This document shows, piece after piece, positions 13,457-24,000 of a DNA stretch of 24,000 nt. Source of the DNA: Candidatus Calditenuaceae archaeon HR02 (lineage in GTDB: Archaea; Thermoproteota; Nitrososphaeria_A; Caldarchaeales; Calditenuaceae). Each line of letters starts with the position of its first letter. The first letter of the stretch is position 1. Both the position numbers and the translations under genes were made by a program. The stretch covers positions 77,544 to 101,543 of the forward strand of contig BEHE01000002.1 of NCBI GenBank assembly GCA_002898395.1, given 5' to 3'. Under the pieces are notes generated by a model. That model ran no database searches and had not been told where the DNA came from. It worked only from the letters and a program-made list of their open reading frames with translations.

Positions 13457-14305
13457 ATGAGTCTAATTACGAGTGGCTATTTTGCGCCTGTCAGTGTGCG
13501 GGAGGTCTTGTCGCTTAAGCGGAGACTCCGAGATAAAGCACTGATTGTAGCTGGTGGAACAGCAGCGGTACAGTTAATCAGCAAAATGATCGTTGAACCT
13601 CAAGCTATAATCTCTCTAGAGAAAGTCCCGCTCGACTATGTGAAAATGAGGGCTAACAGTGTCGAGATAGGTGCGACAACCCCACTAGCTAGGTTGATTC
13701 ATAGAAAAGACCTTCCAGACGCGTTGAAAAAGGCTGTAGAAAGTATTCACGGCCTAGCACTCAAAGACATGGCTACAGTTGGCGGCAACATATTTACACC
13801 AGCTCCAGCAGGCGATATTGCAACAGCCCTCCTGTCCCTAGATGCAGTACTTATTCTGAGAGGAGCTAGGGGTACGAGAAGCGTGCAACTGTCTAAGTTC
13901 TACAGAGGTCCCTTACAATTCAACATAAAGCCAGATGAGATACTGACAGCGGTCAGGGTTAACAGGCCGCCGAGAATGTCTGCATTCTTAAAGCAGACTC
14001 CTTGGAAGTATAGCGGGCCAACAATTGCGTCTGTCGCCGTAGGCTTAGATTTGGACAAAAATGGTAAGACGCGTAGAGCAATGGTGGCACTGGGGGGCCT
14101 GACCACCCACCCATACCGCGCTAAAAAAGTTGAAAAAATGATTACAGGTAAAAAGTTGTCCGAACAGCTTATCGAAGGAGCGGCTCAGCATTTAACAGAT
14201 GGTGTAGAGGTCATCGATGATGCTCTCGCATCTTCCTGGTACAGGATGCGGGTTGCTGAGGTCCTTTTCAAAAGGATTTTATACAACATCACCGCTGGAG
14301 GGTGA
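13457..14305 (+). CDS. Molybdenum hydroxylase (xanthine dehydrogenase/CoxM/CutB family) FAD-binding subunit
   Basis: 282 aa. YFAPVSVREVLSL..., LIVAGGTAAV, ATVGGNIFTPAPAGDIATALLSLDA and a C-terminal CO-dehydrogenase-flavoprotein-like tail. Confidence 0.85.
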   Translation: MSLITSGYFAPVSVREVLSLKRRLRDKALIVAGGTAAVQLISKMIVEPQAIISLEKVPLDYVKMRANSVEIGATTPLARLIHRKDLPDALKKAVESIHGLALKDMATVGGNIFTPAPAGDIATALLSLDAVLILRGARGTRSVQLSKFYRGPLQFNIKPDEILTAVRVNRPPRMSAFLKQTPWKYSGPTIASVAVGLDLDKNGKTRRAMVALGGLTTHPYRAKKVEKMITGKKLSEQLIEGAAQHLTDGVEVIDDALASSWYRMRVAEVLFKRILYNITAGG

Positions 14306-14311
14306 TTGAGA

Positions 14312-14767
14312 ATGAGGATAAGATTTAGACTTGATGGTCAATCCGTCGAAGTAGACGTAAAGCATACAGAAACTCTTTTGAGGGTGTTGAAGGACAGGTT
14401 AGGCGTAGGTTCTGTTCATTTTGGATGCGGAGAGGGGTCGTGCGGTGCTTGTATTGTCTTGATAGACGGCAGGCCCAGGTATTCATGCCTAACACTTGCG
14501 GGTTATGTTGACGGAAAGGAGGTCTCAACAGTTGCTGCTCTTGCGCGAGATGGCGAATTGACCGAGATACAGAAAGCATTTGTCGAGAATAACGCGGCCC
14601 AGTGTGGATATTGTACACCCGGAATGATCCTGATCGTCAGGGCACTTCTTGAAAAGAACCCATCCCCTTCTGACGAGGAATTGTTTGATGCATTGGCAGG
14701 CAATCTTTGCAGATGTACCGGCTATGTTCCAATCATAAATGCCATTAGGTCCGTAATTAAGAGGTGA
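14312..14767 (+). CDS. Molybdenum hydroxylase [2Fe-2S] small subunit (CoxS/CutC family)
   Basis: FGCGEGSCGACIVLIDG...SC (plant-type cluster) plus QCGYCTPGMI...CRCTGY (second cluster). The ATG at 14312 is 6 nt after GGAGGGTGA. The track's TTG at 14306 is an alternative start. Confidence 0.9.
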   Translation: MRIRFRLDGQSVEVDVKHTETLLRVLKDRLGVGSVHFGCGEGSCGACIVLIDGRPRYSCLTLAGYVDGKEVSTVAALARDGELTEIQKAFVENNAAQCGYCTPGMILIVRALLEKNPSPSDEELFDALAGNLCRCTGYVPIINAIRSVIKR

Positions 14768-14773
14768 AGGGGC

Positions 14774-16132
14774 TTGTCGGAGCAGTTTTCTATAGTTGGT
14801 AAACCCATCATGAATGCCCAGTTGTTGGGCCACGTGACTGGCTCAACCCAGTATGTCGACGAGATATCATTCCCCGGAATGCTGTGGATGAAAGCTGTCC
14901 GCAGCCCTGTGCCGCGAGGAAAGATTAGGAGGATTGACACCTCGAAGGCTGAAAAACTGCCTGGCGTGGTGCGGATCATAACCGCGAAAGACGTGCCTAA
15001 CAACATACATGTCAACATGGCTGCGATCGGGATTGGGCCGCCCGACGAGCCCGTCCTACCCGAGGATGAGGTCAACTATAAGGGAGAGGCGATATGCCTC
15101 GTAGTTGCTAAAGACGAGGAGACGGCCGCTAAGGCCGCTGAGATGGTTGAAGTTGAGATAGAGGAGCTCCCCCCTGTCCTCGACATGGAGGAGGCCTTGA
15201 AGCCGAGTGCGCCGGTCATCAAGAAATGGGGCATGAACGCCTTTATCTTTGGTTCAGGAATGGATGGAGCTACGAGGCCCGGTAGACCTGGCAGGCCCTT
15301 ATTCCTAGTGAAGAGAGGTGAGGTGGAGATAGCCTTGAAACAGGCGGACTATGTGGTTGAGGGCAGCTACCTAATCCCTCCCATAGAGCATGCCCCGATT
15401 GAGCCGCATGTATGCGTGGCCAAGCCCGAGCCTGGGCAGAGACTCACAATTTACACTACAACGCAGGCGCCTTATTTTGTGAGGGACAACGTCGCTACAA
15501 TCCTCAACATTCCGCCCTCTAACATTAGGGTTGTCGCCCCGGCCGTCGGCGGGGGGTTCGGAGGAAAGGTGGACCCAGAATTTGAGATGCAGGTCGCCGT
15601 CGCCGCCATGTGTGTTGGGAGACCAGTTAAATGGAGATGGACTAGGGAGGAGGAGTTCACAATATCTACTACGCGACCAGCTGTAAAGATAGAGTTCCAA
15701 GATGCTCTCTCTAAAGATGGCTTAATACTTGGAAGAAAGGCGAGACTACTCCACGACTCAGGCGCATATACAAGGACATCGCCTTACGGAGTAATAAAAG
15801 CGACCGTCAACCTCTCAGGTCCCTACTACATACCCAATGTACATTACGAGGGTTATTGCGTATATACCAATAGGCAGCCCTCAAGTGCTATGAGAGGGTA
15901 CGGAGTCTTCGAGTTTTCTTATGCTGTTGAGTTACAGATGGAGAGGGATGCTAAGAAGCTTGGTATTGATTCGTGGGAGTTCAGGTTTAAGAACGCCTAC
16001 AGGAACGGACAAGTCTCCGCTACGGGAAAGCTGATAGACGATGCATATCTCATCGAGGTTATGAAGGAGGCGGTCGCGCTTGCTGGGGTTAGTCTGCCTA
16101 ATCATTTGCTTCAGATGAGCTCGTGGGGGTGA
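14774..16132 (+). CDS. Molybdenum hydroxylase Mo-cofactor-binding subunit, N-terminal part (L-like, 452 aa)
   Basis: FSIVGKPIMNAQLLGHVTGSTQYVDEISFPGMLWMKAVRSP (Ald_Xan_dh hammerhead), VGGGFGGK and SSAMRGYG. The RGYG motif indicates the XDH/aldehyde-oxidoreductase type rather than the CODH VAYRCSFR loop. TTG start is 6 nt after GAGGTGA. Confidence 0.85.
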   Translation: MSEQFSIVGKPIMNAQLLGHVTGSTQYVDEISFPGMLWMKAVRSPVPRGKIRRIDTSKAEKLPGVVRIITAKDVPNNIHVNMAAIGIGPPDEPVLPEDEVNYKGEAICLVVAKDEETAAKAAEMVEVEIEELPPVLDMEEALKPSAPVIKKWGMNAFIFGSGMDGATRPGRPGRPLFLVKRGEVEIALKQADYVVEGSYLIPPIEHAPIEPHVCVAKPEPGQRLTIYTTTQAPYFVRDNVATILNIPPSNIRVVAPAVGGGFGGKVDPEFEMQVAVAAMCVGRPVKWRWTREEEFTISTTRPAVKIEFQDALSKDGLILGRKARLLHDSGAYTRTSPYGVIKATVNLSGPYYIPNVHYEGYCVYTNRQPSSAMRGYGVFEFSYAVELQMERDAKKLGIDSWEFRFKNAYRNGQVSATGKLIDDAYLIEVMKEAVALAGVSLPNHLLQMSSWG

Positions 16133-16138
16133 GAGGGT

Positions 16139-17143
16139 GTGGCGAAGCTTAGAGGTCGCGGCATTGCCGCAATTTGCTATCCAACAGGTATGAATCTAGG
16201 TGGAGACCCCAGCCAGACAGTTATAATAGCTCAGCCTGACGGAACTTTCGTGGTAAATGTGGCTAGTGTTGAACTAGGTCAAGGTTTGAGGACTGTGCTA
16301 GCGCAGATCGCGGCTGAGGCTATAGGTGCCTCCATTGAAGACATTGAGGTTAGATTTGGGGACACACAATTGGCACCACATGATACAGGCACATTTGCGA
16401 GTAGAACAACCCACAGGATGGGGAACGCGATCATAAAGGCTGGACAGGAAGTAAGGCAGATACTGTTAGATGTAGCATCTAAGATACTGGAGGTCTCCCC
16501 CCAAGACCTAGAGATTAGGAATGGGAAGATATGGGTTAGAGGTGTTCCTGATAAGTTTATATCGGTAAGGGAGGTAGCTAGCCAGGCACAGTTCGTCTAC
16601 AACATTCCAGTGGTAGGAAAGGGTCACTACGTCAAGCCCAAAAGCATTGTAGACCCTGAAACTGGTGAGTCTGACCCACATTCAACAATGGCGCACGGCT
16701 GTGTGGTAGCCGATGTAGAGGTCGACACTGAGACTGGTGAGGTAACCGTTCTCCGGCTATTTACAGTCTACGAGGTTGGCAGGGCAGTTAATCCAAAACT
16801 CGTCGAGGGCCAGATAATAGGCGGCGCGGTGATGGGTCTTGGAGCTGCATTGAGAGAGACAGTCTATCCCCGCTACCCACAGATAATACACCAAACCACG
16901 AGTTTTCGCGAATACGTCTTACCTACAGCGGGCGACGTTCCAAAGATTATCTACAAGATAGTTGAGTCACCCACACCGACAGGACCATACGGTGCTAAAG
17001 GTGTCGGCGAGATGGTAGCAAACGGCATAGCACCCGCGATAGTTAATGCGGTTTACGATGCAATTGGTGTACAGATAACCGAGCTACCTATAACCCCTGA
17101 GAAAGTGTTAAAGGCCTTAAGTGAAAAGGGGAAATCAAAATGA
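16139..17143 (+). CDS. Molybdenum hydroxylase Mo-cofactor-binding subunit, C-terminal part (M-like, 334 aa)
   Basis: LRGRGIAAICYPTG..., FGDTQLAPHDTGTFASRTT, and YGAKGVGEMVANGIAPAI carrying the conserved catalytic Glu. GTG start is 6 nt after GGGGGTGA and in the same frame as the preceding ORF. Confidence 0.85.
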   Translation: MAKLRGRGIAAICYPTGMNLGGDPSQTVIIAQPDGTFVVNVASVELGQGLRTVLAQIAAEAIGASIEDIEVRFGDTQLAPHDTGTFASRTTHRMGNAIIKAGQEVRQILLDVASKILEVSPQDLEIRNGKIWVRGVPDKFISVREVASQAQFVYNIPVVGKGHYVKPKSIVDPETGESDPHSTMAHGCVVADVEVDTETGEVTVLRLFTVYEVGRAVNPKLVEGQIIGGAVMGLGAALRETVYPRYPQIIHQTTSFREYVLPTAGDVPKIIYKIVESPTPTGPYGAKGVGEMVANGIAPAIVNAVYDAIGVQITELPITPEKVLKALSEKGKSK

Positions 17144-17194: not shown

Positions 17195-18007
17195 ATGCCA
17201 GAAATTAAGATACAGTATATCGGACACGCATCTTTTTATATTGAATGGAAAGATGAGAAGATCTATCTCGACCCTTGGCTGAAGTCTCCTGGAATCGCGG
17301 GTGGGTGGACCAACCCTGTGAGCCCTGTTGCTCTTGATGATGTAAAAGAGGCCACTGTGGTTCTCGTGACACACGGCCACATAGACCATATTGGACACGC
17401 TATCGAGATCGTGAAGAAGACCGGTGCATGCCTGATATGTAGCCCAGAGGTTGGAATGTATGCAGACATACACGGAATACCCTACGACTCTGATCCAGAC
17501 CCAAAGGCAGGGCGGAATTACTGGATGTATCCGCTTAACGTGGGAGGAAGCTGCAACATCAGGGGAGTCACATACACGATGGTCCCTGCATTCCACTCAA
17601 GCAGCATCATGCACTACGACTATGTAAAAAACAAGACTAGGTATCCGGACGGCGCGGTAGGGTATGTGATATCTTTCCCTGACGGGCCTGTGATCTATGC
17701 CTCGGGAGACACGGGCGTCTCTATGGAGATGCACATGATTCAAGAGCTATACGGTCCCGAAATATGCATAATGACAGCGGGGGGCCAGTATAATATGGGC
17801 GTTAGGGAGTTCGCGTATGCGTGCAAGATATTGAAGCCTAAGATAGCCATACCCTGCCACTACGATACTTTCCCGCGGCAGAGACTAGATAAAGAGAAAC
17901 TAAGACAGGCTGTATCTGTCATGTCACCATCTACAAATCTTGTTTTTCTTAATCCAGGCGAGAGTTTAAGATATGTAACGGAATCGACCTGGTTTGTGGA
18001 GAGGTGA
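17195..18007 (+). CDS. Metallo-beta-lactamase-fold metal-dependent hydrolase (UPF0173-like)
   Basis: 270 aa. IKIQYIGHASFYIEWKDEKIYLDPWL, then VLVTHGHIDHIGH (HxHxDH motif), with later Asp/His ligand positions (SGDTG, PCHYDTF). Confidence 0.8.
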   Translation: MPEIKIQYIGHASFYIEWKDEKIYLDPWLKSPGIAGGWTNPVSPVALDDVKEATVVLVTHGHIDHIGHAIEIVKKTGACLICSPEVGMYADIHGIPYDSDPDPKAGRNYWMYPLNVGGSCNIRGVTYTMVPAFHSSSIMHYDYVKNKTRYPDGAVGYVISFPDGPVIYASGDTGVSMEMHMIQELYGPEICIMTAGGQYNMGVREFAYACKILKPKIAIPCHYDTFPRQRLDKEKLRQAVSVMSPSTNLVFLNPGESLRYVTESTWFVER

Positions 18008-18414
18008 TCTTGGTGGATCTGGACCTGCTCTATGAGTTGGAAGCTAAGGTCATTAGGACTGTTGAGATTGGTGGCGGAGCTACAGGGGGTAGAACCGACT
18101 TCTACATGCAAGGGAAGGTCTCGGGGAAAATAAATGGCTCGTATGAAGGAGTAGACTACGGATCAACGGTTAAGACGGAACGTGGTGACGCTGTCTATGT
18201 CCATGTACACGAGACAATAAAGACAGATAAGGGGATAATCTCGGCATTTAGGCGTGGATATGCCATCCCCTCTGGCCAGGGGTATAATGTGAGAGCGTTT
18301 GTTCTTTTCCAGACAGGGGTGCCTGAGCTCAGATATCTGAACTGGACTTTGGGTTTGGCTGAGGGCGTAGCTGGCCCTGATGGTCTTAAACTCAAGATAT
18401 ATGCAGTTAGGTAG
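18004..18414 (+). CDS. DUF3237-like small beta-barrel protein
   Basis: 136 aa. IGGGATGGRTDFYMQGKVSGKINGSYEGVDYGSTV...ETIKTDKGIISAFRRG resembles the DUF3237/UPF0311 pattern (recalled from memory). The true start is probably TTG 18010 or GTG 18013, just after GAGAGGTGA. Confidence 0.5.
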   Translation: MILVDLDLLYELEAKVIRTVEIGGGATGGRTDFYMQGKVSGKINGSYEGVDYGSTVKTERGDAVYVHVHETIKTDKGIISAFRRGYAIPSGQGYNVRAFVLFQTGVPELRYLNWTLGLAEGVAGPDGLKLKIYAVR

Positions 18415-18970
18415 AGAAGGTTCTTTTTCTTCTAAGCCCCTCAAATGTTATTTTCCTTAATCGTTTACCTTCTAGGATGACTATCGAAGAGCGGAAGGAC
18501 AGGCCATACTCTCGAGCAGCCCTTAAAGGCCCGTATTCACCTAACTTGTAGCCATAGTTAATCAAGGCATCATATGCTTTGCGCTTAAAGCCGCGGAGGT
18601 AAGGGCCTATGACTTTTAACAGTATCACAGCCCTCAGCCCTAAGACGTAAATTACTATCCACGACCCCCTCCTTAACACCCATGCATCACCAACCTGCCT
18701 GACAACAAAAGAAGCTGTATCCTCATCACAGCGCATCGTGGCAAACGGAGTATAGAGCATCGGGCTTTCTGAGACCTGTAAGTATCCTAACTCGCCTGAA
18801 GCTTGGAGTAGCCCTGCTATGAAGCTACTCACCACGGGGCTTAGAAGCTGTCTATTAGGCGGCTTCCTCTCAAGCTCGCAAAGCACAGTTGAAAAATCGT
18901 CAACGACCCAATCCTTCCCTGGCTCACAAAACACACGCCACCAAGGCGGGACAAGACCTGGCGCAACCAT
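18407..18970 (-). CDS. Hypothetical protein (187 aa), last gene of the sugar ABC operon
   Basis: The ATG at 18970 lies 1 nt after the TAG stop of the upstream ATPase. I recognise no motif. It has one hydrophobic stretch (SWIVIYVLGLRAVILLKVIGPYL) and a basic C-terminus. Confidence 0.55.
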   Translation of the reverse strand: MVAPGLVPPWWRVFCEPGKDWVVDDFSTVLCELERKPPNRQLLSPVVSSFIAGLLQASGELGYLQVSESPMLYTPFATMRCDEDTASFVVRQVGDAWVLRRGSWIVIYVLGLRAVILLKVIGPYLRGFKRKAYDALINYGYKLGEYGPLRAAREYGLSFRSSIVILEGKRLRKITFEGLRRKRTFST

Positions 18971-18971
18971 C

Positions 18972-20066
18972 CTAAATAATTACCATCTCAGTCTCAGCGT
19001 CTATTACATGAATATGTTCCTTATTGAAAACAGCATAAACCTGCATACCCTCTCTAACATTTAGACCCGCATCACAGAGACATTTAAATGACGCTGAGCC
19101 ACTCTTTAACTCTACAAGAAGCACCGTGCCGAGCGACTCTATATAATTTACATAGCATGGGATCGAGTCGCTCACCGGTGCAGTTGAGATGCTAATGTCA
19201 TGAGGCCTCACACCTAGCTGGATATTTTCTAGCTTGTCTTGCCGTGACTGTAACGCGAATTTAGCCGCCTCTCCTAATTCTATATGCGAGTCACCCACAG
19301 AAGCGTAGAGCTTACTCTCCACTAGCTTAAGCTTTGTATCGATGAAGTTGATGGTGGGCGAGCCTATGAAATAGGCGACAAACTTGTTGACTGGGTGGTA
19401 GTAGATCTCGTCGGGAGACCCCACCTGCTGGAGTCGTCCGTCACGAAGTATACCGATCCTATCCGCTATAGCCATGGCCTCCAACTGGTCGTGAGTGACG
19501 TAGATAAAGGTGCCTCCGACCTCCCTGTGTATGCGCTGGAACTCTGATCTAAGTGACTCTCTTAGCTTAGTGTCAAGGTTGCTGAGGGGTTCATCGAATA
19601 TGAATACCCGCGCATTTCTCACTATAGCTTTAGCTATAGACACGCGTTGCAGTATTCCAAAGTCAATCTCATGGTGCCTCTTATTTAGATGCTCTTCTAT
19701 GCGGAGAAGCGAGGCAGCCCACCTAACCCTCTCACGCTCGTCCTGCTTGCTCTTGACCTCGCGCCTGATGGCTAGGGCTATGTTGTCGTATACGTTTAGG
19801 CTTGGGTATATTGAAGGGAACTGGAAAACCATCGCTATATTCCTCTCAGACGGTGATAAATCAGTGACATCTTCGTCGTCAAAGAATACCGAGCCACTCG
19901 TAGGGGTCTCCAGGCCAGCTATTATCCTCATCAGGGTTGTCTTACCCGACCCGCTAGGTCCCAGAAGACAGAAGAATAATCCGTGGTCTACCGTTACCGA
20001 AACATTGTCCAATGCTTTTAAAGTCTTGAAAATCTTTGTTATATTCTCAGCGCGTACCTTCACCAA
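18972..20066 (-). CDS. MalK/UgpC-type sugar ABC ATPase, paralog 2 (degenerate signature motif)
   Basis: Walker A GPSGSGKTT, Q-loop VFQFPSIYP, Walker B VFIFDEP and H-loop YVTHDQ are intact. IDFGI (19653-19667) replaces LSGGQ. FIGSPTINF and a C-terminal regulatory/TOBE-like domain are present. The start is TTG 20066 or GTG 20063, just after the stop of the 90-aa ORF. Confidence 0.85.
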   Translation of the reverse strand: MVKVRAENITKIFKTLKALDNVSVTVDHGLFFCLLGPSGSGKTTLMRIIAGLETPTSGSVFFDDEDVTDLSPSERNIAMVFQFPSIYPSLNVYDNIALAIRREVKSKQDERERVRWAASLLRIEEHLNKRHHEIDFGILQRVSIAKAIVRNARVFIFDEPLSNLDTKLRESLRSEFQRIHREVGGTFIYVTHDQLEAMAIADRIGILRDGRLQQVGSPDEIYYHPVNKFVAYFIGSPTINFIDTKLKLVESKLYASVGDSHIELGEAAKFALQSRQDKLENIQLGVRPHDISISTAPVSDSIPCYVNYIESLGTVLLVELKSGSASFKCLCDAGLNVREGMQVYAVFNKEHIHVIDAETEMVII

Positions 20067-20071
20067 GTCTC

Positions 20072-20344
20072 CTACACCACCAGGAGGGGTACAAGATAAA
20101 TTGATAGCATGACAAAGAATACAACAACGCCCACGAGCGTCACAAGCCATCTTATCATTGTTTTTGGACCTACATCGCCACCTGGATTGTTCGGCAAGTA
20201 CGTGGAGTAGACATATGTAAAGCCCCCAACCCCTAGCAGGATAAAACCATAATATAGTAGCTGGCTGCTAAAAGGCTGGAATACAAGTGCGAGACCGATG
20301 AATGATAGGGTAAGCCCAACTTTTTCTAGCAAATTCTTCTTCAT
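20072..20344 (-). CDS. Small predicted 3-TM membrane protein (90 aa)
   Basis: The ATG abuts the TAA of the upstream ATPase with 0 nt spacing. There are three hydrophobic segments (GLTLSFIGLALVF, LLYYGFILLGVGGFTYVY, WLVTLVGVVVFFVMLSIYLVPLLVV). I recognise no family. Confidence 0.6.
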   Translation of the reverse strand: MKKNLLEKVGLTLSFIGLALVFQPFSSQLLYYGFILLGVGGFTYVYSTYLPNNPGGDVGPKTMIRWLVTLVGVVVFFVMLSIYLVPLLVV

Positions 20345-21433
20345 TTAATACATCGCCTCCCCACTTGCTACGTCAAAAAGAATGACCCTATCACCTGGAA
20401 TATTTATCGTCACTTCATCACCATATCTATACGGCCTCATGCCCTTAGATACTGCTTTCAACTCGACATCGCCGAGACTAAGGGTAACTATTGTTTCATA
20501 GCCCAGCCTCTCTGCAGCCAGAATCTTTGCTTTGAATGAATTGCTGTTCTTAGGCGCCTCTAAGACTATGTCTTGTGGTCTGATGGCAAGCTCCACTTCA
20601 GAGCCGTCAGAAAGCTTAGAGGAAGCGCCTATATTGCCCAACTGGATTTTCAGACTGGTTGTTGAAAACTCCCAGCCATGAGCCTGCCGCCTAACGATCC
20701 CCCGCATAATGTTTATAGTGGGGCTCCCTATGAAAGTCGCCACAAACCGGTTTTTCGGCCTCCTCATCAAATTTATGGGTGTATCGTACTGCAATATCAC
20801 GCCATCCTTTATTACTGCGACCTTCTCAGCAACTGCAAAAGCCTCTAAGAAGTCTGGGGTGGCGTAGATGATCGTCTGTTTCAACTCCCTATGCAGTCTC
20901 TTGAACTCCGTCCTCATCTCTTCCCTAAGCTTGGCATCTAGATTCGAGATAGGCTCGTCCAGGAGAAAGACCCTCGGATTCCTAACCAGTGTGCGCGCAA
21001 GTGCTACACGCTGCATCTCGCCACCACTAAGTGTGGATGGATCTTTTCTGTCTAGGAGATGTGCTATTCTTAGCTTCTCAGCTACGGCTTTTACCGACTT
21101 GTCAATATCTTCCCTGCCCCATTTACGCTCCTTTAACGGGTAGGCGATGTTGTCGTAGACACTCATATGTGGATAGAGCGCGTAAGTTTGGAAGAACATG
21201 GCTACATCTCGTCTCCAAGGTGGAGTTCCTAACACACTCTGTCCATCGAAGAGTATATCACCAGCGTCGGGCTCTTCAACACCGGCGATGCATTTAAGGA
21301 GAGTTGTCTTTCCCGCACCTGTCGGTCCTAAGAGCGCTACAAGGGCGCCGGACTCAACCTCTAGGTTAATACCTTTCAGTGCTTGAACAGGTCCAAAAGA
21401 CTTCTTTAGGCCGCGTATCTCGACCCGCGTCAA
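20345..21433 (-). CDS. MalK/UgpC-type sugar ABC ATPase, paralog 1 (degenerate H-loop)
   Basis: Walker A GPTGAGKTT, Q-loop FFQTYALYPHMSV, signature LSGGEMQRVALAR (21017-21031) and Walker B VFLLDEP are intact. The H-loop reads IIYATPDF, with Pro (20855-20857) in place of the switch His. The TTG start abuts the permease stop. Confidence 0.9.
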   Translation of the reverse strand: MTRVEIRGLKKSFGPVQALKGINLEVESGALVALLGPTGAGKTTLLKCIAGVEEPDAGDILFDGQSVLGTPPWRRDVAMFFQTYALYPHMSVYDNIAYPLKERKWGREDIDKSVKAVAEKLRIAHLLDRKDPSTLSGGEMQRVALARTLVRNPRVFLLDEPISNLDAKLREEMRTEFKRLHRELKQTIIYATPDFLEAFAVAEKVAVIKDGVILQYDTPINLMRRPKNRFVATFIGSPTINIMRGIVRRQAHGWEFSTTSLKIQLGNIGASSKLSDGSEVELAIRPQDIVLEAPKNSNSFKAKILAAERLGYETIVTLSLGDVELKAVSKGMRPYRYGDEVTINIPGDRVILFDVASGEAMY

Positions 21434-22339
21434 CTATTTTGCACCCCTCACTGTACCGAAGGTCATCCCCCTCAGCAAGAAGCGCTGGAGAACGAAGATA
21501 AGAACGAGAGCAGGCAGAATGTAGAGTGTCTCTATAGCTGCGATAAGGCCCCAGTTGATGCCGACCTCACCCCTCGTCCCCGCGATCATAACAGGTACCG
21601 TCCTAGTAGCCCTCTCCGTCAGCAGCAATGCGAAAAGAAATTCGTTCCAGACATTAATTATTAGGAAACCTATTGTGGCCCCTAGGCCCACCAACACCTG
21701 CGGAAGGGCGATCTTGTAAAAGACTTTGACCGGGTTCGAGCCATCGACTAACGCGGCCTGCTCGATATCTCTAGGCACCTCATCAAAGAAGCTCTTCATC
21801 ATCCATACAGCGAATGGTAGGTTGAACATCGTGTAGAGCAGGATAAGTCCAATATATGTGTTGTAGAGGCCTAGGCTCCGATAAAAGAAGTAAATTGGAA
21901 TGGCGACCACGATGGCTGGCAGCATCCTTGTAGAAAGGATGAAGAACATTAAAGTGTTGGTTCCTGCAGGCTTGTATCTTGAGAAGCTGTATGCGGCTAG
22001 AACCCCTATCACTGTAGCGATGGCTATACTGGAGAATGTCACTACGAAGCTATTGTAGAAGAAGGTCTCAGCACCTGTAGCCAACTCTAACTCCTGCCCG
22101 GTTATTGCCTCGATCTCTGTCTGCCTCTTCAGGAAAATGTCTATAAAGTTTCGGAATGTTGGCTCCCAGACAAAGAGTGGGGGTGTACTGAAGGCCTGTG
22201 CCCTTGTCTTTAGCGAGGTTGCTACGAGCCAGTAAATAGGGAAGATGAAGAAGATGACCGCGATAATCGCCGATATGTATATGAGAACTGTTCTCACGAT
22301 CTTACGCCTGCCACGCCTGTTATTTCTTGAATTTGCCAT
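21434..22339 (-). CDS. Carbohydrate ABC transporter permease (MalG-type)
   Basis: 301 aa polytopic protein with EAA loop DIEQAALVDGSNPVKVFYKIALPQ. Confidence 0.85.
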   Translation of the reverse strand: MANSRNNRRGRRKIVRTVLIYISAIIAVIFFIFPIYWLVATSLKTRAQAFSTPPLFVWEPTFRNFIDIFLKRQTEIEAITGQELELATGAETFFYNSFVVTFSSIAIATVIGVLAAYSFSRYKPAGTNTLMFFILSTRMLPAIVVAIPIYFFYRSLGLYNTYIGLILLYTMFNLPFAVWMMKSFFDEVPRDIEQAALVDGSNPVKVFYKIALPQVLVGLGATIGFLIINVWNEFLFALLLTERATRTVPVMIAGTRGEVGINWGLIAAIETLYILPALVLIFVLQRFLLRGMTFGTVRGAK

Positions 22340-22341
22340 CT

Positions 22342-23220
22342 CTACTCCCTCCTCGCTAACCTGAGATAGATGTTCGTCAAAAGCACTATAATTACTAAGA
22401 ATATAAATGCTAGCGCGGTAGCCTCACCAGTCCTGAAAAACTGGAAGGCGATGCGGTAAATCTGTATTGACAACACCTCAGTGGCGGTTCCAGGCCCTCC
22501 CCCCGTTAGCGTGAAAATTGTGTCAAAGGTCCTGAAGGCGTCCATCGTCCTAAAAAGAAGGGCAAGTGCTACCAGTGGTCTAATGGTGGGCCAGACAACG
22601 TACCTAAACTTTGTAAACATTGACAATCGGTCAATCTCGGATGACTCCAACATGTGTTTCGGAATAGCCTCGAGGCCTGCCAATATGAAGAGCATCATGA
22701 ACGGAGACCACTGCCAGACATCCATGAATATAATTGCGAACATTGGATGTTGGGAGAGTATCTTGACTGACTGTCCTGTTATCAGCTGCGCAAAATAGCT
22801 GTAGACACCAAAGGTCGCGTCAAAGAGGTATCGGTGGAAGATGCCTACTGCCACCGGGGCGACGAGAAGGGGAGTTGTTACAAGGGTTATTGCTAGCCGC
22901 CTACCACTGAACTGGTTATAGAATAGCAGAGCAAGCCCAAATCCAATTAAGAATTCAATACTTACCGCATAGAAGACGAATTGCCCGGTCAAAACGAATC
23001 TCCTCCACACGTCTAGACTATTCAAGAGCCTGTAATAATTCTCAACCCCGACAAAAACAGGTGCCTCCCCGCGAATAACGTTATATGAGTAGAAGCTAAG
23101 GCCGAGAGCCCAGATGAGCGGGAAGATTACAAGGAATGTGACGAGAGCGACTGCAGGTAGTATGAGGAGGACGGAGAAAATCCTAATTAGCCGACTACCA
23201 GTAGTGGCTTGTAAAGTCAT
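22342..23220 (-). CDS. Carbohydrate ABC transporter permease (MalF-type)
   Basis: 292 aa polytopic protein with EAA-like loop LESSEIDRLSMFTKFRYVVWPTIRP. Confidence 0.85.
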   Translation of the reverse strand: MTLQATTGSRLIRIFSVLLILPAVALVTFLVIFPLIWALGLSFYSYNVIRGEAPVFVGVENYYRLLNSLDVWRRFVLTGQFVFYAVSIEFLIGFGLALLFYNQFSGRRLAITLVTTPLLVAPVAVGIFHRYLFDATFGVYSYFAQLITGQSVKILSQHPMFAIIFMDVWQWSPFMMLFILAGLEAIPKHMLESSEIDRLSMFTKFRYVVWPTIRPLVALALLFRTMDAFRTFDTIFTLTGGGPGTATEVLSIQIYRIAFQFFRTGEATALAFIFLVIIVLLTNIYLRLARRE

Positions 23221-23264: not shown

Positions 23265-24000
23265 TTAGCCGATAGGCAGGCCTCGTCTTATAAGCTGTGC
23301 TACATTCTTCGCAGGTTTTCCATATTTCTCAAATGCTGCGGGATAGTTCTCCCTTTCAATTATCTCCTTGTGCCGCCGCGCCATGTTATCTAGTGCGGTT
23401 TGAGGAGTGATATTGCCCGCTAGTGCTGCATGTATCTCTTCTTGTACGACAGTCAGCATCTCGAAGAAGAATGGAACGTTCCAGAAGTCGACTTGGAATG
23501 CTATAGAGTCGGCATAGGCCCGGTTGTATGGTGTTAGGTTCCTAAACCACTCGGTCTGGACGATGTCCCTGATACATACTCCGCCACCACCTTCAGCCCA
23601 TCTACGCTGATTCTGGGGCTGGAACCAGAATTTTATGAAGGCAAGCGCCTCCTCTGCATAGTCGCTGTAGGCGTTTATACACATCGGCTGTCCCCCGATT
23701 CCGCTATACCTCCTGAATATACCATCATCTCCTTTGTGCCCAGGCGGAGGCACAACCCTTATCACGTTGTATACCTTGGATGCCGCAGGGTCGAAGAGCT
23801 CGGAAGGAAGCCGGCCCAGTTATAGATCATGGCTACTCTTCCAGCCTGCATTACGGCATTGGCCTCGTCAAACCATATTTCAAGGGCGTTCGGTGGGGCA
23901 TAGGGGACTAGCGAGACATAGAACTCGAGGGCCTGCCGCGCCCTCGGGCTATTGATCCATCCATCAACTTCTCCCGTCTCAGGGTCCCACCAATACTCTC
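23265..24000 (-). pseudogene. Extracellular solute-binding protein (family 1, sugar), interrupted by a 1-nt frameshift; 5' end outside the window
   Basis: The frame from 23998 reads EYWWDPETGEVDGWINSPRARQALEFYVSLVPYAPPNALEIWFDEANAVMQAGRVAMIYNWAGFLP and then runs into a TGA at 23762-23764. The continuation ELFDPAASKVYNVIRVVPPPGHKG... is in the -1 frame, which is open only from 23819. The switch point lies within about 23795-23812. Confidence 0.75.

Follow-up and report, generated by a model that had tools for sequence, protein, structure and literature searches.

The nucleotide-binding domains (NBDs) of ATP-binding cassette (ABC) transporters pair head-to-tail, and in each ATP site the signature is contributed by one subunit, the Walker A, Walker B and H-loop by its partner. 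Contacts with the gamma-phosphate are made by the Ser and the second Gly of the signature, and substitution of the H-loop His nearly abolishes ATPase activity in MalK, HisP and HlyB. MalK of the MalFGK2 importers (Escherichia coli, Thermococcus litoralis), GlcV (Saccharolobus), UgpC and AlgS are homodimers, and feature two consensus sites. One degenerate and one consensus site are found in TM287/288, TmrAB, TAP1/2, BmrCD, CFTR and MRP1, and reviews present degenerate sites as a hallmark of exporters (PMC3971661, PMC7756269). Degenerate sites are known also in RbsA and NupO, fused importer ATPases of the CUT2 type (PMC11466899). The GlpSTPQUV system of Rhizobium leguminosarum is a genetically characterised glycerol ABC transporter (PMC7912956 and PMC11962113). 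Besides two permeases and a pair of ATPases, it includes a binding protein and a small integral membrane protein, according to PMC7912956 and to the gene list in PMC11223650. An operon made by the same kinds of components resides in the genome of Candidatus Calditenuaceae archaeon HR02, in a stretch of 24,000 nucleotides (contig BEHE01000002.1, positions 77,544 to 101,543), hereafter called the window. The two ATPases of this operon, A1 and A2, carry different motif lesions, which would fall in one and the same ATP site of an A1:A2 dimer.

The operon is compact, and lies on the minus strand. Its genes, in the order of transcription, are (aa, amino acids):

23265..24000, minus strand: substrate-binding protein gene, 3' part, SBP_bac_1/8 family; continues past the window edge
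22342..23220, minus strand: permease 1, UgpA/MalF/GlcT-like, BPD_transp_1 (Pfam PF00528; NCBIfam UgpA, GlcT)
21434..22339, minus strand: permease 2, GlcU/MalG/UgpE-like, BPD_transp_1 (Pfam PF00528; NCBIfam GlcU, MalG)
20345..21433, minus strand: ATPase A1, 362 aa, T-type lineage (PF00005, TOBE_2, motif alignment)
20072..20344, minus strand: small integral membrane protein, 90 aa, with three hydrophobic segments read from the sequence
18972..20066, minus strand: ATPase A2, 364 aa, C-type lineage (PF00005, TOBE_2, motif alignment)

The stop codon of permease 2 abuts the start of A1 (TAG, TTG), and that of A1 the start of the small open reading frame, or ORF (TAA, ATG); 5–8 nucleotides (nt) separate the stop of the latter from the start of A2, which is either TTG at 20066 or GTG at 20063. 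The short start is used by orthologs and gene calls. An upstream ATG at 20150, which gives a mechanical ORF (18972-20150) longer by 84 nt and overlapping the small ORF, was rejected, because orthologs start shorter. The presence in the ATPase operon of two BPD_transp_1 permeases and a SBP_bac_1/8 binding protein, seen at full length in orthologous loci, is typical of CUT1 importers, and the operon is best read as encoding a type I ABC importer of the CUT1/MalK kind, made by six components and dependent on a binding protein.

Both ATPase ORFs, their signatures, the Pro of A1 and the His of A2 had been located in a preliminary description of the window, and were found at exactly the same coordinates when recomputed. 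The motifs of the two ATPases are:

21302-21328, minus strand: A1 Walker A, GPTGAGKTT
21182-21196, minus strand: A1 Q-loop, FFQTY
21017-21031, minus strand: A1 signature, LSGGE, intact
20951-20968, minus strand: A1 Walker B, FLLDEP
20849-20866, minus strand: A1 H-loop, YATPDF, degenerate, with Pro193 at 20855-20857
19935-19961, minus strand: A2 Walker A, GPSGSGKTT
19815-19829, minus strand: A2 Q-loop, VFQFP
19653-19667, minus strand: A2 signature, IDFGI, degenerate
19587-19604, minus strand: A2 Walker B, FIFDEP
19485-19502, minus strand: A2 H-loop, YVTHDQ, intact, with His192 at 19491-19493

A1 and A2 were aligned at the residue level to solved MalK-type ATPases (AlgS, 4tqu; Pyrococcus proteins 2it1, 2d62 and 1v43). 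The A1 segment 'iyatpdfleaf' aligns with 'iyvthdqveam', and the A2 segment 'heidfgilqrvsia' with 'relsggqrqrval', in accord with the earlier assignment of a Pro for the switch His in A1 and of IDFGI for LSGGQ in A2. Both proteins have an intact Walker A, Q-loop Gln, Walker B Asp-Glu and D-loop, and both feature the SNLD and FIGSPTIN motifs, as previously described.

A1 and A2 are 36% identical. Both score well above the gathering cut-off (25 bits) of PF00005 ABC_tran, with 126.2 and 100.3 bits, respectively, and feature motifs in canonical order. TOBE_2 scores are 28.5 bits for A1 and 24.2 bits for A2 (cut-off 21), and OB_MalK matches are sub-threshold. The closest solved relatives of the two proteins are AlgS, the Pyrococcus and Thermococcus MalK and MsmX (E-values 1e-70 to 1e-84). 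UgpC, MalK and GlcV are the best NCBIfam matches of both. A1 remains below the equivalog cut-offs of all three (345.6/432, 311/568 and 295.5/450, respectively), as does A2 (UgpC, 320/432; GlcV, 288.5/450; MalK, 269/568), and the proteins are therefore not to be named after any of them.

As NBD dimers are head-to-tail, only an A1:A2 pair would restore a fully consensus site. This site 1 would be made by Walker A, Walker B and His192 of A2 and by the LSGGE signature of A1, and would be the catalytic one. The other, site 2, would combine Walker A, Walker B and Pro193 of A1 with the IDFGI of A2; it would thus be devoid of the switch His, and Asp and Phe would take the positions of the Ser and Gly which contact the gamma-phosphate. 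From these motif states, and from the comparisons given below, we infer, with good confidence, that A1 and A2 form a heterodimer with a single catalytic site. The two proteins would pair as an obligate heterodimer on the two permeases, and transport would be powered by hydrolysis at site 1 only, at a cost of roughly one ATP per cycle.

The lesions are conserved. Database searches identified sets of 37 A1 orthologs (92–53% identity) and 32 A2 orthologs (92–48% identity), and scores fall abruptly from these sets to generic MalKs. According to source names, the orthologs come from Nitrososphaerota/Thaumarchaeota, Bathyarchaeia and Wolframiiraptor metagenome-assembled genomes. The A1 orthologs all (37/37) keep the H-loop Pro, in the form YATPD[FYH], along with LSGGE. 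In the A2 set the signature pattern is [IL]D[FLMA]G.LQ, with Ser instead of Gly in one ortholog, and an Asp is found at the position of the signature Ser in 32/32 proteins, all featuring also VFQFP and YVTHDQ. Invariant changes specific to the A1 clade include S38T and C40A in the Walker A and V190A and H192P in the H-loop; those specific to the A2 clade include S135D, A143S and R146K in the signature helix. The two groups of changes would correspond to the two faces of one composite site. Lys42, Asp159-Glu160 and Gln82 are invariant across the A1 orthologs. The A2 clade is narrow, since only two representatives of it remain in a library of 1.84 billion proteins clustered at 50% identity.

The order binding protein, permease, permease, A1, small protein, A2 is found in eight further archaeal loci, which include L001, L002, L003, L004, L005, L092 and L093. 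In these loci the binding protein is intact, and measures 553–580 aa; the small protein measures 90–94 aa. A1 and A2 are adjacent in the window and in all of the eight other loci, and 10 further A1/A2 ortholog pairs have both members on contigs of equal size. A scan of species-representative genomes with an A1-family alignment revealed no close archaeal relatives among the matches listed.

Substitution rates were computed against L001, a 92%-identical locus, at an overall dS of about 0.6–0.9. The dN/dS ratio is 0.048 for A1, 0.041 for A2 and 0.063 for the small ORF (dS about 0.8–0.9 for these three genes), 0.04 for permease 1, 0.02 for permease 2, and 0.02–0.04 for flanking permease and enzyme genes. 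Purifying selection is thus exerted on the ATPases and on the small ORF as well.

These data bear on the possibility that the operon is decaying, and that the motif changes are inactivating, as is the lesion found in the binding-protein gene. In the latter, a 1-nt deletion near 23798 (AGCC to AGC), already noted in the preliminary description as a frameshift, was confirmed by DNA alignment to L001 and L002; the frame switch is visible in the three-frame translation, and the C-terminal ORF (23265-23765) matches SBP_bac_8 and SBP_bac_1. The deletion is confined to the window copy, as the binding protein is intact in all of the eight other archaeal loci, L001 and L002 among them. Around it, the window differs from L001 otherwise by scattered single-base substitutions. 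Either this deletion arose very recently, or it stems from an error in sequencing or assembly; in both cases it has no bearing on the ATPase motifs. Orthologs with canonical His and LSGGQ, which had been regarded as the mark of pseudogenisation, were looked for in the two sets and were not found. The ATPase ORFs are not truncated, 37/37 and 32/32 orthologs carry the substitutions, and a dN/dS of 0.04–0.05 at a dS of about 0.8 is that of genes under constraint. The claim that the proteins are conserved rather than decaying is thus upheld; pseudogenisation of the ATPases is ruled out by ortholog conservation and dN/dS, and decay of the operon deserves hardly any credit.

A wider family of importers with two ATPases emerged from the scan of species-representative genomes, and from motif extraction from the MalK-like ORFs of fetched loci. 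Adjacent MalK-like ATPase pairs are common in bacteria, and are made by a C-type subunit, marked by the Walker A sequence GPSGCGKTT, beside a T-type subunit, marked by GPTGAGKTT. Hosts of such pairs are Mesorhizobium, Bradyrhizobium, Thalassospira, an Agrobacterium plasmid, Pelagibacteraceae (SAR11-type), Herpetosiphon and Micromonospora. One ATPase per CUT1 operon, as assumed at the outset, is therefore the norm but not a rule, as two-ATPase bacterial relatives are widespread and one such system, GlpSTPQUV, has been characterised. The majority of the bacterial C-type/T-type pairs keep two consensus sites. In a neighbour-joining tree A1 is placed inside the T-type lineage, with GPTGAGK-type partner subunits. 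The A2 clade, P0157 and the GlpT-like subunit of L035 reside on long basal branches, and the tree was not used to count lesion origins. The archaeal A1/A2 system is best viewed as one branch of a wide, cross-domain family of two-ATPase importers which would include GlpSTPQUV.

The lesions have a marked polarity. A sample of 468 MalK-like ATPases was examined; as its members were collected for their resemblance to A1 and A2, it does not amount to an unbiased census. In it, the signature is degenerate in 62 proteins, all of which keep the H-loop His, and the H-loop is degenerate in 59, all of which keep the signature. The two lesions were found together in 0/468 proteins. The canonical class includes 304 members, in which signature SGG and H-loop His are intact by class definition. 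Wherever the signature was strongly degenerate in an inspected locus, the adjacent ATPase had a degenerate H-loop, and in some predicted fusion proteins the two lesioned domains are joined:

L006 (Poribacteria) and L007: C-type signature LTADQ / LTSGQ; T-type H-loop YATPDQ
L035 (Geminicoccus): C-type signature LGADA; T-type H-loop YSTTEP
L089: C-type signature LDAGT; T-type H-loop YATPDP
L090: C-type signature IDPGL; T-type H-loop YATGDP
P0241 (predicted fusion, 588 aa): C-type signature LATDV; T-type H-loop YATTDP
P0334 (predicted fusion, 580 aa): C-type signature LDAGS; T-type H-loop YATSDS, Walker B LDDP

P0046 (583 aa) is a further predicted fusion of T-type and C-type NBDs; the three predicted proteins may be true fusions or artefacts of gene calling. 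Polarity, co-occurrence and conservation agree with the earlier proposal that the A1 and A2 lesions are complementary, and would both be hosted in one composite site of the A1:A2 dimer.

These patterns are hard to match with an arrangement in which each paralog is homodimeric, and serves this or another transporter. In its favour, canonical MalK-type ATPases form homodimers, a single ATPase serves several CUT1 systems in some genomes (MsmX, MsiK), and a canonical MalK, P0044, is encoded on the same 45-kb contig in Wolframiiraptor. An A1:A1 dimer would feature, however, two sites without the switch His, and an A2:A2 dimer two sites without signature. The A1 and A2 genes are translationally packed and never apart in the examined loci, and both the predicted T-C fusions and the perfect polarity of the lesions across lineages argue for pairing of the two types. 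We regard homodimers as very improbable.

The A1:A2 heterodimer might alternatively be competent for catalysis at both sites, should the substitutions be tolerated or compensated. A1 keeps the Walker A Lys42, the Walker B D159 and E160 and the Q-loop Gln82, and two consensus sites are kept by rhizobial, Chloroflexi and other bacterial relatives; hence the ancestral machine used both. Against competence of site 2 are the severe effects of H-loop His loss in MalK, HisP and HlyB, and the role of the signature Ser and second Gly in touching the gamma-phosphate. Furthermore, the residue at the His position drifts across lineages (P, T, G, S, N), as does the signature (IDFGI, LDMGT, LTADQ, LGADA, LATDV), and such drift denotes relaxed catalytic constraint, not a new catalytic solution. 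Two competent sites are, in our judgement, improbable.

A heterodimer with a single catalytic site leaves to site 2 a different role. Efficient hydrolysis would not occur there, because the switch His is missing and Asp and Phe replace Ser and Gly. Mg-ATP would probably still be bound, and hydrolysed slowly or never, because A1 has an invariant Lys in the Walker A, Asp-Glu in the Walker B and Gln in the Q-loop. By analogy with TM287/288, TAP and CFTR, site 2 would act as a structural or allosteric latch; we give to an ATP-bound latch about an even chance. Site 2 might instead be nucleotide-free, the dimer being held by the C-terminal domains and site 1, and a contact made by the A2 Asp replacing ATP. 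The Asp found for the signature Ser in 32/32 orthologs, and the bulky F, L, M or A found for the first Gly, fit this alternative, as an acidic side chain opposite the gamma-phosphate is expected to be unfavourable. Without a nucleotide it is yet hard to explain why Walker A, Walker B and Q-loop should all be complete and invariant in A1, and we hold an empty site 2 to be unlikely.

Several observations weigh against a heterodimer with one catalytic site and a latch, in addition to the way in which the MalK-like sample was gathered. T-type subunits with H-to-N changes (YVTNDQ) coexist with an intact partner signature in L024 (Micromonospora) and L042 (Oceanitalea), and C-type subunits with LAGGD or LPAGD coexist with an intact partner His among L013, L014, L017, L030 and L056. 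As such partial states exist, the lesions need not arise jointly; partial states may be steps toward degeneration of the site, or independent versions of it. The catalytic Glu, lost in many degenerate exporter sites, is retained in A1 (E160), and residual hydrolysis at site 2 has to be allowed for. ATP-dependent closure of site 2 might be blocked by the Asp that invariably replaces the signature Ser, and this would void the latch. Finally, as its binding-protein gene is frameshifted, the window copy of the system may not work, except if a sequencing error accounts for the deletion.

GlpSTPQUV is the characterised system closest in organization to the archaeal importer; it was reportedly described by Ding et al. 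in 2012, a study cited in PMC7912956 and PMC11962113. The Geminicoccus locus features the order glpD, T-ATPase, C-ATPase, permease, permease, DUF2160, 591-aa binding protein. The same arrangement recurs on plasmid pSK05 of R. leguminosarum (L091), where it is flanked by glpR, glpD and glpK, and is the glpSTPQUV glycerol transporter; the assignment of the names glpS/T/P/Q/V to single genes is presumably that given in KEGG. GlpS (glpS/glpT at L091:7510-9666) features GPTLAGKTS and, while its LSGGQ is intact, has YATTEP as H-loop; in GlpT, GPSGCGKTT and VFQFP are found together with the signature LTADQ and an intact YVTHDQ. By these motifs, GlpST carries the same one-consensus, one-degenerate design as A1/A2. 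A degenerate site in GlpST is not mentioned in the literature searched, made mostly by papers available without subscription, nor is a degenerate site described there for any MalK-type importer.

The GlpSTPQUV and window systems share six components, CUT1-type permeases, a MalK-like ATPase pair and complementary lesions. The binding proteins are long in both (about 570 aa), and weakly homologous; those of the window type and of the Geminicoccus homolog are 22% identical over 524 aa (pairwise E-value 1e-11). Identity of the ATPases is 37–40%. Gene order differs, being S-T-P-Q-U-V in the former and V-P-Q-A1-small-A2 in the latter. The lesions involve Thr and LTADQ in GlpS/GlpT, Pro and IDFGI in A1/A2, and the small subunit is a DUF2160 protein (GlpU) in the first system, a member of an unrelated family, named QPF below, in the second. 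Neither glpD nor glpK was found in the window or in the archaeal loci, where the neighbours are DUF3237, MBL-fold, AP_endonuc_2 and GFO_IDH_MocA genes. On the whole, the window system is to be regarded as a distant relative, and not as an ortholog, of GlpSTPQUV.

Other systems resemble the archaeal importer in part. MalK, GlcV, UgpC and AlgS share with A1 and A2 ATPase fold and domain order, and their transporters the permease and binding-protein families; unlike these homodimeric ATPases, the window has two paralogs, one degenerate site and a small membrane subunit. In heterodimeric exporters, as in A1/A2, loss of the H-loop and loss of the partner signature converge on one composite site. 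These exporters, in contrast, have a type IV fold with fused membrane and nucleotide-binding domains, operate without a binding protein, usually lack the catalytic Glu which is kept in A1, and have no close sequence relationship with the window proteins outside the ABC domain. RbsA, NupO and MglA belong, as the window system, to binding-protein-dependent importers, and one of two ATP sites is degenerate in them. Yet they are single polypeptides associated to another permease family, have loss of the Walker A Lys among their lesions, and are not of the MalK type. OppDF, DppDF and LivGF are importers with two ATPases and two consensus sites, and offer looser parallels. The MptABCDE polyol transporter of S. 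meliloti was also considered as a two-ATPase relative; PMC3599248 carries no subunit description of it. In the preliminary description, ATP-site asymmetry was not known as a feature of binding-protein-dependent sugar importers. This holds for the MalK type in the literature searched, but degenerate sites are known in RbsA and NupO, and GlpS/GlpT and other bacterial pairs share the asymmetry of A1/A2.

The same parts, including the QPF small protein, are found in a sister family represented by L088:2445-9684 (R. acidisoli plasmid pRapFH23b) and L021:2282-9723 (Thalassospira), and A1 clusters with the T-type subunits of these loci. Gene order is LacI, binding protein, permease, permease, 62-aa QPF protein, C-type ATPase, T-type ATPase, dihydroxyacetone kinase. 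Here, in contrast to the window, both sites are consensus (LSGGD and LSGGE; THDQ in both ATPases), the ATPases come in the reverse order, the operon is followed by a dihydroxyacetone kinase gene, and the small protein has two hydrophobic segments. The sister family may import dihydroxyacetone or a polyol.

The small membrane protein encoded between A1 and A2 has no Pfam or NCBIfam match. Its core motif, G..(x)QPF...Y.YGF...G, is shared with shorter bacterial proteins (55–73 aa), which a hidden Markov model (HMM) of our own identified immediately upstream of the two ATPase genes in some 20 loci. A third hydrophobic segment is present in the archaeal, L089 and L090 versions, and two segments are found in the bacterial L088/L021 type. 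At least 6,962 database clusters match the profile of the QPF family; all are labelled 'hypothetical', and none has a Pfam domain or an informative name. 'Hypothetical protein' is also the PGAP label of one homolog from Rhizobium acidisoli. Identity with GlpU/DUF2160 was considered and rejected: there is no DUF2160 match, and hhalign comparison of the QPF family to DUF2160 gives a probability of 0.1%. The QPF and DUF2160 proteins are thus taken to be analogous, not homologous. The recurrent position next to the ATPases makes the protein the probable sixth subunit of the importer.

Some hints on the substrate come from neighbouring genes. Relatives of the operon are flanked by AP_endonuc_2, GFO_IDH_MocA, zinc alcohol dehydrogenase, FGGY kinase and dihydroxyacetone kinase genes, and these neighbours would point to a polyol or a ketose rather than to a classical sugar. 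MBL-fold (Lactamase_B_2/3) and DUF3237 genes adjoin the transporter on the plus strand (window 17195-18414), and do so likewise in L001–L003, L092 and L093; this recurring linkage suggests a shared pathway. A 187-aa ORF on the minus strand (18407-18970), directly downstream of A2, has no family match. Counterparts of 159–190 aa are found in L001–L003, and probably also the 177-aa gene of L093 is one. The ORF evolves faster than its neighbours (dN/dS 0.17; 77% identity to L001). Elsewhere in the window, an operon of the xanthine dehydrogenase/CO dehydrogenase family spans 13457-17143 on the plus strand:

13457-14305, plus strand: FAD-binding subunit
14306-14767, plus strand: 2Fe-2S subunit
14774-16132 and 16139-17143, plus strand: molybdopterin large subunit, two ORFs

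The split of the large subunit into two ORFs is kept in L002 and L003.

Two-ATPase CUT1-type importers and the six-part architecture were already known; what appears unreported is the ATP-site asymmetry within them, and this appears to be a property of the family as a whole, not a peculiarity of the archaeon in which it has been noticed. The asymmetric design spans from thermophilic archaea to Rhizobium, is under strong purifying selection, and has in GlpSTPQUV a genetically tractable member. Two problems of annotation also come to light. A1-, A2-, GlpS- and GlpT-like proteins are labelled 'ABC transporter ATP-binding protein' or 'multiple sugar transport ATP-binding protein', and the small membrane subunit, with its thousands of database clusters (at least 6,962), has no family model. 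More tentatively, and at odds slightly worse than even, a large and ancient family of bacterial and archaeal type I importers, GlpSTPQUV among them, may operate with a single catalytic site, the second one being a permanent, non-hydrolytic nucleotide latch or sensor, and may also need a dedicated small membrane subunit of either the QPF or the DUF2160 family. The ATP stoichiometry of type I importers, and the contribution made by the second site, have been mostly studied in engineered half-dead mutants, as those of HisQMP2. If the reading proposed is true, a naturally asymmetric MalK-type heterodimer would provide a clean system to measure the stoichiometry of coupling, and to learn what a non-hydrolytic site does in an importer. 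Nature would have already run the test of whether one ATP suffices for import, and these transporters would be the importer counterpart of TM287/288 and TAP.

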